64,000 nt of DNA from an uncultured Methanomicrobiales archaeon (GTDB lineage: Archaea > Halobacteriota > Methanomicrobia > Methanomicrobiales > Methanospirillaceae): positions 928,001 to 992,000 of the forward strand of contig OY969100.1 of NCBI GenBank assembly GCA_963697895.1, given 5' to 3'. Made by a program: the position numbers and the translations under genes. The notes below the pieces were generated by a model that had not been told where the DNA came from, searched no databases, and saw nothing but the letters and a program-made list of their open reading frames with translations. This document shows positions 4,893-14,916 of the stretch, one piece after another. Positions within the stretch are counted from its first letter, which is position 1. Every line of letters begins with the position of its first letter.

Positions 4893-5160
4893 GGAACCAC
4901 CCTGTGTGCATTCCTACACGTGGACTGATCCAGATGAGATGGTGAGGCTATCCCTATAATCATTGTTACGTTCTGGTATCTCCGTAACAAAAACAGGCCC
5001 TTGCTCTTCTCTCCTATTAACGTTGTGATGAGTTACCCCCTAATTCGTTCCCCAACCACCCTTTTTATCCCTGTTCCCGGTTACCGAAAGGTACCGGAAG
5101 ATTGGCAGGAAAAAGATCAGAGGATGAACTCTTTATAAAAACAAACCTCACGGTAACCTG

Positions 5161-11127: not shown

Positions 11128-11242
11128 AAGGAAATGAACATTCACCAGGGGACCATTGGATAAGGGCGATCGTGCGAAACTTGAAGGGAGATTTTCGTGG
11201 GACGGGAAGAGCTGAATGCGGCATGATCCCGGGGGGACAGGG

Positions 11243-12081
11243 ATGATCGGCGCCGGCGGGTACCCGACAGCGGGCAGTTTGACCGGGAATACGAAACGGA
11301 CCCGAAAATCAGTCCCCGCAATAACGGGAAAGGTGTACCTGGTCGGGTCAGGCCCCGGCGGTCTGGCCCACATGACGCTCCGGGCACAGGACGTGATCCG
11401 GGAGGCGGACGTGATCCTGTACGACCAGCTCCCGGGCGACGAGATCCTCGCGAGCCTGCCGGAGACGGCAGAGCGGATCGACTGCGGTAAGTTCGGAGGC
11501 AGGCACACCCGGGAACAGGAGGAGATCGAGGCCCTGATGGTCAGACGTGCGGCCGAAGGGAAGACGGTTGTCCGCCTGAAGGGAGGCGACCCCTTTGTCT
11601 TCGGTCGCGGGGGGAAGAACTCGAGGTGCTCCGTAAACACCGGATCCCCGTCGAACTTGTCCCGGGGGTGTCGAGTGCGATCGCGGTTCCCGGATCGGTC
11701 GGGATCCCGCTCACGCACCGGAAGTACGCATCCCAGGTCACGATCCTCACCGGCCACGAGGATCCGGCAAAGCCGGAATCCGCCCTGGACTGGGAACTCC
11801 TCGCCCGTGGCCGGGGGACGATCGTCATCCTCATGGGGGTGAAGAACCTCCCGCAGATCGCCGCCTCCCTCCTCAGGTACGGAAAAGACCCGGATACCCC
11901 GGTCGCGATCATCGAGCGGGGGATGCGGCCCGACCGGCGGGTGACCACGGGGCCGCTCTCCGGGATCGGGCGGATCGCGGAGGAAAAACAGGTCAAACCT
12001 CCCGCGGTCATCGTGATCGGCGGCGTGGTGAACCTTTACGATGAGTCCGCACCCGATCTTATCCCCTTCTCTCCCGAGTGA
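11243..12081 (+). CDS. cobA: Uroporphyrinogen-III C-methyltransferase; -1 frameshift in a G-run near 11610; start uncertain
   Basis: GKVYLVGSGPG and RLKGGDPFVFGRG, then VPGVSSA and ILTGHE in the other frame. Confidence 0.9.
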
Positions 12082-12212: not shown

Positions 12213-12392
12213 ATGGATAAGAAGGTAAAAAACAATATCAGTGTCGTATCATTCATCATCGGGTTCATCCTGATCCTTATGCAGGACTTCAGCCGGTTGC
12301 AGACGATCGATGTAGGCTTCAGCTGGCCGTGGGCGGTCATGTTCTATGTCGGGCTTCTCCTGATCCTGGTCGGGTTCCTGCTCCGGGGATAA
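12213..12392 (+). CDS. Small 59-aa two-TM protein (absent from the ORF track)
   Basis: MDKKVKNNISVVSFIIGFILILMQ...WPWAVMFYVGLLLILVGFLLRG; GAGAGG upstream and a TTATAA box near 12158. Confidence 0.65.
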   Translation: MDKKVKNNISVVSFIIGFILILMQDFSRLQTIDVGFSWPWAVMFYVGLLLILVGFLLRG

Positions 12393-12620
12393 CCCTAATC
12401 CCGATATCTGTCTTTTTTCCCTGTTTGCGGTTCAAGAATATTCGATCATCCGAACCATTTCCGCTCATAAGCCGATTTTTTGCTTCAGAGCCGGAAGAGC
12501 CGACTAAATATCAGATTGTGAGATCATCTTTCCTCTGAGATATCCCTTCCAAAATGTACTGCGCACGAGAAGATATCCAAGGGAATCATGCCATCCCGAC
12601 CCCACAAACCTGCTCATCGT

Positions 12621-12634
12621 ATAAAAATATATAT
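12621..12634 (+). promoter_or_regulatory. BRE/TATA box of the six-gene operon
   Basis: ATAAAAATATATAT about 26-30 nt before ATG 12660, consistent with a leaderless transcript. Confidence 0.55.
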
Positions 12635-12659
12635 GCATGAAACTGCATCTCCTTCTGGT

Positions 12660-13148
12660 ATGCAAGACTATGTGACGTTAAAGGTGAAGGTGAGAGCCTT
12701 CCCGAGCAAAGGGCGGGCCCGGTTACACGAGTCCGTTCTTCCCGAATTAGCGGTTAAAGAAGGCGAAAGCCTCTCTCTCATGAAATATCCGCAGGTCTCC
12801 GATGACAAGACCAAGCCGGTATCGGTCACGGCGTACGGGGACAAGCAGGTGGGGAAGGGAGTGATTATGTTAAGCCCCGAGGACATCGCCGCTCTCGGCG
12901 TTGCGGAGGGTGATACTATCGCCGTGAAACGGAAGGTGCCGCTCACCGAGAAGATCACGAAGAAAGCCGCCCCCACGGGTACCGCGGTCAAGGAAGACGC
13001 TGTCAAGGCGGGTGCTGCGGTCAAGGGAGGGGCAGTCAAGGCAGGTACCGCCGTCAAGACAGGAGCAGTCAAGGCGGGGAAGGCCGTCGAAAAAGGGGCA
13101 AAAGACGTCTCCGCGAAGGTCAAGCCCCCCAAAGAAGAGAAGAAATGA
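12660..13148 (+). CDS. Hypothetical protein: CDC48/VAT-N-like double-psi barrel plus Ala/Lys/Val 11-mer repeats
   Basis: GRARLH..LAVKEGE and GKGVIMLS..LGVAEGDTIAV pseudo-symmetric halves; tail GTAVKEDAVKA/GAAVKGGAVKA/GTAVKTGAVKA/GKAVEKGAKDV. Confidence 0.6.
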   Translation: MQDYVTLKVKVRAFPSKGRARLHESVLPELAVKEGESLSLMKYPQVSDDKTKPVSVTAYGDKQVGKGVIMLSPEDIAALGVAEGDTIAVKRKVPLTEKITKKAAPTGTAVKEDAVKAGAAVKGGAVKAGTAVKTGAVKAGKAVEKGAKDVSAKVKPPKEEKK

Positions 13149-13162
13149 AGGGGATCTGACCT

Positions 13163-13576
13163 GTGGCGAACGAAACGACGATCGTGACCTCCACCTCGCC
13201 CTACTGGACCTGGTTCGAGACGGTGTTCTGGATCATCATCCTGGTCATCATCCTGGTCATCATCTACTACATCATCAGGGAGATCCGGCAATGGAGCGTT
13301 ACACCCAAGCTGGCACAGATCGACCTCGAGAAGGAGAAGCTGAACCTGATGAAACTGGAGATGGCCCAGCGGGGCACTCCCTTCTTCCGGGTCTCTCCCG
13401 AGAAGCTCGGGGAGATCAAGGACCTTGCCGACGAGAATGTCGCGCTCGAGACCGATATCTTCGCGCAACACAGTGCGGTGGACAAGCGGATCGAGCGGCT
13501 GGAGAATAAGGTGAAACTGACCAAACTCGACCGCATGGTGGAAAAGATCAAGGATGAAGAGAGAAAGATCGGGTGA
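13163..13576 (+). CDS. Single-TM coiled-coil hypothetical protein
   Basis: N-terminal Ile/Val TM helix then heptad-rich helices; GTG start. Confidence 0.75.
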   Translation: MANETTIVTSTSPYWTWFETVFWIIILVIILVIIYYIIREIRQWSVTPKLAQIDLEKEKLNLMKLEMAQRGTPFFRVSPEKLGEIKDLADENVALETDIFAQHSAVDKRIERLENKVKLTKLDRMVEKIKDEERKIG

Positions 13577-13893
13577 ATCAGATGACCGAAACAGAAACAG
13601 CAACAGAACAGACGGCCAAAAAATCATCCTTCACGAGCTCGGTGAAGGCAGTACCTGCTACTGTCGATTCATGGCTCCCGACGATGGACAAGAACCTTGA
13701 CAAGTACTTCGATTCCCATATGGCCGCTATCATCGAGGAATGGGGACTGGTCACGGAACCCTTCCTGGATGAACTCGAGCACCGGCTGGCAGTCGTCCAC
13801 ACCGACCTCCTGAAGCTGGAGAAGGGCCGGACCCGGCTGGAGAAGAGAGCGGAATACCTCGACGCCGGGATCCGCGAGCTGGAGGGACAGTAA
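13573..13893 (+). CDS. Coiled-coil hypothetical protein (paralog 1)
   Basis: GTGA overlap with upstream gene; LDKYFDSHMAAIIEEWGLVT motif. Confidence 0.75.
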   Translation: MNQMTETETATEQTAKKSSFTSSVKAVPATVDSWLPTMDKNLDKYFDSHMAAIIEEWGLVTEPFLDELEHRLAVVHTDLLKLEKGRTRLEKRAEYLDAGIRELEGQ

Positions 13894-14118
13894 TGGTCGG
13901 CACGGACAGACTACATGAACAAGTACCTGGACCGGAGGATGAAGGTCCTCATCGAGGAATGGGATCTGGGTACGAAAAACGACCTTGGTAACTTTGAGGA
14001 CCGTCTTGTCGCGGTCGAAGAGGGGACCCGGGAGATCGAAGCCTTCGAGCTGAACGCGGATGTCAGGATGGACGAACTGGAAGCACGCCTGTACAGACTC
14101 AAGGAGGCGAATAAATGA
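13893..14118 (+). CDS. Coiled-coil hypothetical protein (paralog 2); start 13893 if a +1 indel lies near 13905, otherwise 13915
   Basis: TAATG coupling; MNKYLDRRMKVLIEEWDLGT motif. Confidence 0.7.
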
Positions 14119-14456
14119 CCCCACTCGAGGGATTCCTGGTCTTCCTCATCATCGTGATCATCGCATTCCTGATCTATTACTATTTCCGGGGCTCATCCGG
14201 GAAGGTATCCCTCGGCCGGCCGATCGAGAGCCGGGTGGACGAGTACCTTGACCGGCGGTTCGAGATGATGATCGATGAATGGTCGCTCACCGACCGGACA
14301 CGGGTGAACTCGTTCCGCGAATCGAAGGGAAAATTCCTTCTCGATGATGAAACACGGGTTGCCTCCCTGAAAGAGTTCAAAGACGGGATGAGTGAGAACC
14401 TGTCCCGGATGGAGGAGCGCCTGAATGCTCTTGAAACCCAAATCGACAAAAAATGA
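14115..14456 (+). CDS. TM-anchored coiled-coil protein (paralog 3)
   Basis: ATGA overlap; N-terminal TM helix; VDEYLDRRFEMMIDEWSLT motif. Confidence 0.75.
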   Translation: MTPLEGFLVFLIIVIIAFLIYYYFRGSSGKVSLGRPIESRVDEYLDRRFEMMIDEWSLTDRTRVNSFRESKGKFLLDDETRVASLKEFKDGMSENLSRMEERLNALETQIDKK

Positions 14457-14748
14457 ACGGGCCAAACCCCGGGAGGAGCAGGAGTTCTTCTCCCGGGTCA
14501 AGGGGGATATCACCACCATCCGTGAGCAGGGAACTCCCCCGGAGAAAGATACCGGCAGCTTCTCCCGGTTCCGGTGCGATCTCTGCAACGGTACGTTCCC
14601 GCTCACCGAGCTGAAGCAGTGCACCCTCTGCGGGAGGTGGGCCTGCTCCTCCTGCTGGACAACGGAATATTATATCTGCAACTCCTGCAGCGGCATCGTC
14701 AGGCTACACCTGATTCCCGCCCAGCAACCGGGGAAACCCCGGAATTGA
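14425..14748 (+). CDS. 8-Cys zinc-finger protein (FYVE-like spacing); true start possibly 14453 with an indel
   Basis: CDLC-x11-CTLC-x4-CSSC-x7-CNSC; T7 terminator at 14752-14758. Confidence 0.7.
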   Translation: MLLKPKSTKNERAKPREEQEFFSRVKGDITTIREQGTPPEKDTGSFSRFRCDLCNGTFPLTELKQCTLCGRWACSSCWTTEYYICNSCSGIVRLHLIPAQQPGKPRN

Positions 14749-14916
14749 TCCTTTTTTTACCTATAAAAATCCACAGAACCCGGATATTTTTTTTGTTTGC
14801 GTTCGCCGGGGTACCGAAATCTACCTGATAAATCCAAAAAAATATTTTGTGCATGCATTGTTTCTCCCCGTGATGTTTTTATTGCGTCCGGGAACCAAAC
14901 TGCCCGGAGGGTACGA

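Follow-up and report, generated by a model that had tools for sequence, protein, structure and literature searches.

A conserved six-gene operon of Methanomicrobiales archaea that may encode a membrane-anchored protein scaffold

To our knowledge, no experimentally studied system has the composition of the six-gene operon described here, which occupies positions 12620-14758 of a 64,000-nucleotide stretch of DNA (the window) from an uncultured Methanomicrobiales archaeon of the family Methanospirillaceae (GenBank assembly GCA_963697895.1, contig OY969100.1, positions 928,001 to 992,000 of the forward strand). The closest likenesses of its products, named A to F in gene order, are to single protein families: the zinc fingers of Pfam family Prok-RING_2 (PF14445), a family reportedly described by Burroughs, Iyer and Aravind in Mol Biosyst in 2011; FYVE fingers such as those of endofin, Hrs, EEA1 and the Rab effectors, which are defined by a basic phosphoinositide-binding motif before the third cysteine; the N-domain of Cdc48/p97 and archaeal VAT, in which the p97 cofactor-binding cleft lies between two subdomains; and the phasins (PF05597) and apolipoprotein-, perilipin- and synuclein-type 11-residue repeats. 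A further likeness is to a two-gene unit of Methanobrevibacter.

Comparison with these families reveals both kinship and departure. F matches the Prok-RING_2 model end to end, with all eight zinc ligands, but no ubiquitin-system genes lie beside it and its predicted shape is nearer to that of FYVE-type fingers. Like them, it is predicted to be a binuclear cross-braced finger with a C-terminal helix, although the match is weak and a conserved non-basic stretch takes the place of the basic lipid-head-group motif. A has the fold of the Nn barrel of Cdc48/p97/VAT, together with its internal two-fold repeat, but stands alone, without the second N-subdomain (Nc) or an AAA+ domain, and has instead a tail of 11-mers, sometimes followed by a TrkA_C domain. 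Because the p97-type cofactor cleft sits between the N-subdomains, and A has only one, such a cleft cannot exist in A. The conserved head and coiled coil of C, D and E match positions 59-124 of the phasin profile below threshold, and the tail of A has the 11/3 periodicity of the apolipoprotein-type repeats, again with sub-threshold matches; in contrast to these families, B and E carry transmembrane anchors, no family cut-off is reached and PhaC_N was not found in the genome. The Methanobrevibacter unit has a B and an E homologue, ordered and tightly spaced as in the operon, but is without A, C, D and F, and its E homologue has a long variable linker between anchor and core.

The composition of the operon is confirmed, and the operon itself is real, strongly conserved and functionally unstudied. 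From its parts we infer an assembly, which is plausible, and a function: our best explanation, offered tentatively, is that the operon may build a non-enzymatic, membrane-anchored protein scaffold on the cytoplasmic face. By analogy with coat and tether proteins, it would likely organise, stabilise or sense the inner membrane surface. We do not think that it catalyses a reaction or ligates a ubiquitin-like protein.

Gene order, signals and distribution

The elements of the operon, all on the forward strand, are listed below with the evidence for each; lengths are in amino acids (aa) and nucleotides (nt).

12620-14758, forward strand: six-gene operon including the TATA-like box and the T7 run, with open reading frames (ORFs) spanning 12660-14748; ORF list and direct reading
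12620-12634, forward strand: TATA-like promoter element about 30-40 nt 5' of the ATG of gene A; read directly
12660-13148, forward strand: gene A, 162 aa; double-psi beta-barrel at residues 1-95 (nt 12660-12944), then a Lys/Ala-rich amphipathic tail
12976-13078, forward strand: 33-bp tandem repeat inside gene A, encoding 11-residue units; Tandem Repeats Finder (TRF)
13163-13576, forward strand: gene B, 137 aa, GTG start; predicted transmembrane segment at residues 20-38 (nt 13220-13276) by hydropathy, and cytoplasmic coiled coil
13573-13893, forward strand: gene C, 106 aa; soluble paralogue of E with the conserved head motif and coiled coil; alignment
13915-14118, forward strand: gene D, 67 aa; minimal soluble paralogue consisting of the shared core alone; alignments
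14115-14456, forward strand: gene E, 113 aa; predicted N-terminal transmembrane anchor at residues 6-24 (nt 14130-14186) and the shared core
14425-14748, forward strand: gene F, 107 aa; conserved linker and binuclear eight-cysteine zinc finger, Pfam match at residues 42-96 (nt 14548-14712)
14752-14758, forward strand: run of seven T residues 3' of the stop codon of F, a likely archaeal termination signal; read directly

The TATA box, the six closely packed genes and the T7 terminator had already been recognised in a preliminary description of this DNA, and all are present. That description had also listed stop-start couplings, of which the GTGA at B/C and the ATGA at D/E hold; the remaining TAATG (13891) and ATGA (14453) instead lead into off-frame ORFs of 32 aa and 53 aa, respectively. 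The distances between genes in the window are +14 nt (A/B), -4 nt (B/C), +21 nt (C/D), -4 nt (D/E) and -32 nt (E/F), and the corresponding medians in related loci are 18, 3, 14, -4 and -32 nt (n=77-80 loci). In the 80 nt 5' of A, 33 of 76 related loci have a strict TATA-like pattern, which in 26 of them lies 25-34 nt from the start, and 54 of 80 have a run of at least five T residues within 80 nt 3' of the stop codon of F. We read the six genes as a single predicted transcription unit. The open frame of A extends upstream to 12588, and its start was set at 12660 because orthologues begin at the matching residue and the earlier ATG sits inside the TATA region. The start of F at 14425 lies within E, giving the 32-nt overlap, with GGAGG 9 nt upstream, and is supported by a conserved lysine four residues in.

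Conservation of the gene order was assessed in two sets of loci. The first consisted of 20 Prok-RING_2 places taken from 28 positive genomes among 61 related genomes, the family of F thus being present in 28/61, and gene order was checked by tblastn and ORF-level phmmer. For the second, an F alignment was scanned against one genome per species, which gave 138 relatives, the best 80 of which were analysed; the two sets have at least 11 contigs in common. All six genes had the same order and strand in 20 of 20 loci in the first set and were colinear in 78 of 80 in the second, the other two (L057 and L098) being truncated by contig ends. The search of other genomes that the preliminary description had proposed as a check thus came out in its favour, and the six-gene order is far beyond chance. 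Furthermore, when 301 genomes sampled evenly across the phylum were examined, strong matches to F and matches to B coincided exactly, in the same 18 genomes. Clustering of flanking ORFs across the 80 loci brought out the operon's own genes alone as conserved; every other real gene was limited to 21 loci at most, and the other frequent clusters were antisense ORFs over the operon. Together, the colinearity, the preserved gaps, the lack of conserved flanks and the co-occurrence of B and F show the module to be real, rigid, self-contained and inherited as a unit.

The operon was found in Methanoregula, Methanolinea, Methanospirillum, Methanogenium and Methanoculleus, and in two genomes labelled Theionarchaea or Thermococci. 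These last copies (L082, Thermococci-labelled, and L090, Theionarchaea-labelled) are complete and nest inside the Methanomicrobiales copies in a midpoint-rooted tree of concatenated B-F, which suggests lateral transfer. Individual copies show local irregularities: at one Methanoregula locus (L100:2936-3205 and 4900-5154) A lies approximately 1.7 kb 5' of B and an insertion between them seems likely, and at another locus (L119:5458-5647) tblastn recovers D as two abutting pieces that differ in frame, possibly because of a frameshift.

In public databases all six products are named 'hypothetical', except that A has acquired misnomers such as formylmethanofuran dehydrogenase subunit and selenocysteine dehydrogenase. 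No description of the six-gene operon was found in the literature library searched; the 2011 paper reported to define Prok-RING_2 may already show the neighbourhood. Passages of a more recent article (Makarova et al., 2024; PMC10936438) contain no description of the operon.

Membrane anchors, coiled coils and the two-gene form

The proposed scaffold rests first on B, C, D and E. Both B and E contain a single strongly hydrophobic segment close to the N-terminus, and this predicted transmembrane segment is followed by a flank richer in Lys+Arg than the preceding one in 69 of 69 members of the B family and 75 of 75 of the E family, so that the coiled coils should face the cytoplasm. B and E are in this way shown, by hydropathy and charge, as predicted N-out/C-in single-pass membrane proteins with cytoplasmic coiled coils. 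No transmembrane segment occurred in any of 78 C members or 76 D members. The alignment of C, D and E extends over a common core of approximately 67 residues, consisting of a conserved head, in which Tyr, Asp, Glu, Trp and Leu residues are almost invariant, and then a coiled coil. D is the bare core, C the core with an N-terminal extension and E the core with an anchor, so the alignments show C and D as soluble copies of the cytoplasmic domain of E. Hydropathy and alignment therefore bear out what had been proposed for these genes from the outset, namely a transmembrane coiled-coil protein (B) and three coiled-coil paralogues, one of them anchored (C-E).

B reaches no Pfam cut-off, and an Atlas search with it yielded only unnamed archaeal hypothetical clusters; E scored at most 0.82 against named Atlas clusters. 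The C profile found only generic coiled coils among PDB sequences, and the coiled-coil periodicity of B-E gave no clear heptad or hendecad signal. When the C profile was compared with 1.8 billion representative proteins, 275 proteins were recovered at E ≤ 0.001, comprising the C, D and E families, long coiled-coil proteins that were taken as noise, and a distinct family designated E2. This label denotes an E-like protein with a long linker and is unrelated to the E2 of ubiquitin systems.

The E2 family has an E-like anchor, a long variable linker and the same core as E, and the full-length alignment of E with E2 is strong (hhalign probability 99%, E 8e-18). Of 80 metagenome loci encoding E2, 75 have a B homologue immediately 5' of the E2 gene, with an order and a tight spacing like those of the operon, and A, C, D and F were not detected in any of the 80. 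At one such locus (L155, 5578-6525) the B+E2 pair stands alone as a two-gene unit. The B homologue of such pairs is named 'hypothetical protein' or 'membrane protein' of Methanobrevibacter, including M. smithii, and the E2 loci are AT-rich (median GC 0.32, versus 0.53 in the six-gene loci). Because the pair exists alone in Methanobrevibacter, B+E looks like the core of the system, and we infer that C, D, A and F would be additions in the version of the Methanomicrobiales type. The B+E2 pair (L121-L200) is often found 3' of frhADGB and an M24 peptidase gene; a functional link to the Frh hydrogenase or the peptidase was considered and rejected, the arrangement being read as lineage synteny.

The head and coiled coil of C, D and E also bear on a different explanation, that the operon makes a phasin- or perilipin-like coat for an intracellular storage granule. 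Pfam Phasin matches occur in 19 of 60 C/D/E proteins, with a best E of 1.4e-5, and they cover the conserved head as well as the coiled coil; the apolipoprotein-type matches and 11-mer periodicity of the A tail, described below, point the same way. However, the Phasin scores obtained all fall below the gathering cut-off of 28.8 bits (at most 22.9 among 21 listed members), no match to the model occurs in the window's own genome at E ≤ 10, and none of 27 remote relatives exceeds the cut-off, the only one to match doing so at 20.8 bits. Neither does the genome yield PhaC_N, and two of the proteins have true membrane anchors. The phasin likeness raised in the preliminary description therefore survives as sub-threshold matches of C and no further, and a granule coat is a highly improbable explanation of the operon.

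The barrel protein and the zinc finger

The barrel of A is predicted with confidence by AlphaFold, with mean pLDDT values of 85-98 for ten-residue blocks over residues 1-90; it is followed by a helix at residues 95-118 and a tail with pLDDT mostly below 50. Its best structural matches are the N-domain barrels of p97, Cdc48 and archaeal VAT-like proteins (Foldseek E ~3e-7, probability 1.00), and it superposes on isolated barrels (7dg9, 7dbo and 7dg7) with a root-mean-square deviation (rmsd) of 1.8-1.9 A over approximately 90 residues and TM values of 0.79-0.86. The internal two-fold repeat typical of the double-psi fold is evident. In sequence, A scores 31.4 bits against Pfam CDC48_N, below the cut-off of 35.1. 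In the model neither a second N-subdomain nor an ATPase follows the barrel, there being only one helix after residue 95 and then the low-confidence tail, and no ATPase family is listed among 144 A relatives of 89-284 aa, in a search that covered proteins of up to 284 aa. The model and the structural search thus substantiate the earlier claim of a stand-alone CDC48/VAT-N-like barrel lacking an ATPase.

The tail of A contains the tandem repeat of period 33 (3.1 copies, 80% matches by TRF), which yields the four 11-residue amphipathic units that had been noted at first reading. This periodicity is not peculiar to the window. The hydrophobicity spectrum of 87 unique A tails rises to a sharp maximum, 6.7 times the mean, at 98-100 degrees per residue, with 81 of the 87 peaking individually at 90-109 degrees, and the self-identity of the same tails peaks at lags of 11 and 22 residues (0.25 and 0.23, versus approximately 0.1). 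An 11/3 amphipathic helix is therefore a feature of the A family, as judged from this periodicity across orthologous tails.

Some A proteins carry more. Long forms make up 10 of the 87 unique A proteins and come from Methanospirillum, Theionarchaea-type genomes and some Methanoregulaceae. Six of these were scanned, and all six have a C-terminal TrkA_C domain above the Pfam cut-off (30.0-46.9 bits versus 27), while four of the six have sub-threshold apolipoprotein-type matches in the linker:

L082:3879-4766, L090:3831-4778, L092:3946-4767, L093:3893-4732, L083:908-1669 and L034:2434-3171: long-form A with TrkA_C; Pfam

The A of the window has no TrkA_C. Among 77 unique short-form A proteins, 52 end with an acidic residue and Leu, a possible docking peptide; A in the window ends differently. 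These C-termini invite the suggestion that the operon encodes a ligand-gated membrane sensor or regulator, in which the coiled coils would transmit a membrane or ion signal, TrkA_C would bind the ligand, and A and F would relay the response. The presence of TrkA_C in every long form scanned and the putative docking peptide of the short forms agree with such a role. Yet TrkA_C is missing from the A of the window and from most others, the operon includes no DNA-binding, kinase or transporter domain, and no neighbouring target gene is conserved, and we consider a sensor unlikely. If the operon forms a scaffold instead, a small ligand may gate its assembly in those lineages in which A carries TrkA_C.

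F belongs, by its Pfam match, to the named family Prok-RING_2, a membership that had been overlooked in the preliminary description. It scores 92.3 bits against a gathering cut-off of 22.4 (E 2e-26) and covers positions 1-55 of the 56-position profile; the 20 best genome matches to the model score 93-131 bits. The eight cysteines on which the finger had originally been recognised (C51, C54, C66, C69, C74, C77, C85 and C88, with the spacing CX2C-X11-CX2C-X4-CX2C-X7-CX2C) are invariant in 21 of 21 sequences. In a wider set of 75 sequences only C74 of the eight varies, with a conservation of at least 90%. The finger is preceded by a conserved linker.

The fold of F was initially likened to FYVE-type fingers that target membranes. 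The predicted structure (mean pLDDT 83) gave no Foldseek match at E ≤ 0.001. In a structural search against representatives, however, the top 14 rows were all FYVE or FYVE-related, with weak Z scores of 3.0-5.7, the best FYVE-type row having Z 5.7 and an rmsd of 3.2 A over 64 aligned residues; against Pfam FYVE, F scores 15.4 bits (cut-off 27.8, E 0.02). The fold is thus weakly closest to FYVE. The basic lipid-binding signature is absent from the F alignment, in which the stretch before C66 is conserved and non-basic, and this leaves membrane targeting by F unsupported.

A RING-related finger and a Cdc48-type barrel encoded in one operon raise the question of membrane protein quality control. 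On this account F would be a RING-type E3-like adaptor for an archaeal ubiquitin-like modifier, and the barrel of A would hold substrates or would recruit or mimic Cdc48/VAT at the membrane, the whole forming a distant counterpart of ER-associated degradation. In favour of this, RING ligases in eukaryotic membranes recruit p97, F belongs fully to Prok-RING_2, the barrel has the fold found at the N-terminus of Cdc48/p97, and two strong CDC48_N matches elsewhere in the genome are probably real Cdc48/VAT ATPases. Against this, only the six operon genes recur, and no E1, E2 or JAB gene is found among the conserved neighbours of the 80 loci. UQ_con and Prok-E2_B had no match in the window's own genome, an absence that is only weakly shown because the controls were silent everywhere. 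A has neither the second N-subdomain nor an ATPase, the fold of F is nearer to FYVE-type than to RING fingers, and the ancestral-looking B+E pair works without A or F. Both halves of this account, the E3-like adaptor and the substrate-holding or Cdc48-recruiting barrel, appear improbable to us.

A membrane scaffold and its significance

In the membrane scaffold that we tentatively favour, E, C, D and probably B would co-assemble through their coiled coils into a membrane-anchored hetero-oligomeric stalk. The tail of A may rest along the membrane surface or along the stalk, leaving the barrel exposed as a docking site, and F may attach through its conserved N-terminal linker and present its finger as another such site. 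Both modules could then recruit further partners. No enzyme family was matched by any operon product in Pfam, and NCBIfam gave only weak, chance-level rows. PADLOC defence models gave 0 families for 7 proteins at E ≤ 0.1, and a viral contig scan found one 15-residue match only.

Several observations weigh against the scaffold. B has no detectable homology to D, the minimal core of C-E (hhalign probability 1.6%). The amphipathic moment of the 33-residue repeat core in the window is unremarkable, being reached by 244 of 2000 shuffles, and the tail of A, given its low model confidence, could simply be a disordered spacer. Finally, of the genomes searched, 11 of 37 in its own family and 22 of 24 in sister families gave no sign of the operon, which must therefore be dispensable for methanogens as such.

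The relation of B to the other chains also matters for the loosely SNARE-like picture drawn in the preliminary description, whose proposed roles in membrane shaping, fusion, granule coating or division are speculative. C, D and E are paralogues, as that picture supposes, but B is not detectably one of them, and a bundle of four paralogues is weakened accordingly. The same comparison, in which D represented C-E, counts against a membrane-remodelling or tethering machine in the sense of that description, whose two anchored and two soluble coiled-coil chains would form a SNARE- or ESCRT-I-like stalk, acting with the NSF/Cdc48-N-like barrel and the FYVE-like finger in vesicle formation, fusion or division. 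The inventory fits: two transmembrane and two soluble coiled-coil proteins, a barrel, a FYVE-like finger and an 11-mer helix like those of curvature sensors. However, both anchors would occupy the same membrane, and no ATPase is encoded in or beside the operon. Vps4_C was not found in the window's own genome and was present in only 1 of 28 carrier genomes, and PspA_IM30 was likewise not found in its own genome (the control was positive in 9 of 14 genomes), in a check for ESCRT-related proteins that covered Vps4 and PspA, Snf7 not being searched. We regard such a machine as very unlikely.

The distribution of PspA was considered separately. Within the operon's own family, PspA is present in 7 of the 11 genomes that lack the operon, against 3 of the 26 that carry it, whereas 20 of 24 genomes of the sister families have neither. 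Replacement of PspA by the operon was rejected because genera are not independent and the complementarity fails in the sister families.

A bolder form of the scaffold, which is speculative and which we would not expect to prove correct, is an ATPase-free archaeal tether or coat built from parts that eukaryotes use in trafficking. Such parts, in an equally conjectural assignment, would be a heteromeric coiled-coil stalk (E, C, D and B), an NSF/Cdc48-N-like barrel, a FYVE-like finger and an 11-mer helix, akin to those of synuclein or perilipin, that senses or shapes membrane curvature. With no greater assurance, the operon might then be a prokaryotic machine not described before, serving to bud vesicles, repair membranes or organise the envelope, of which the B+E pair of Methanobrevibacter would be the minimal form.

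In the window, a 59-aa hydrophobic ORF (12213-12392) lies just 5' of the operon; no flanking window ORF of at least 80 aa matched the 80 related loci, and the 59-aa ORF is below that size cut. Further upstream, a uroporphyrin-III C-methyltransferase-like gene (11216-12081) is split into two overlapping frames (11216-11842 and 11626-12081). The break falls near 11607-11613, at a six-G run, and looks like a -1 frameshift produced by sequencing error or marking a pseudogene.

What is novel about this locus is the system and its function and not the domain family of F, which was catalogued in 2011. The Methanobrevibacter B+E pair, the TrkA_C domain on some A proteins and the sub-threshold phasin likeness of C are new here. 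The module has been kept intact across Methanoregula, Methanolinea, Methanospirillum, Methanogenium, Methanoculleus and Theionarchaea despite its 'hypothetical' labels, and Methanobrevibacter smithii, the principal methanogen of the human gut, carries its two-gene core. If the finger and barrel act with Cdc48 or ubiquitin-like modifiers, the operon would bear on the pre-eukaryotic use of RING/FYVE fingers and Cdc48 adaptors. If the operon does build a membrane scaffold, it would represent a new kind of envelope-organising machinery for archaea that, like the one from which the window derives, have neither PspA nor Vps4.

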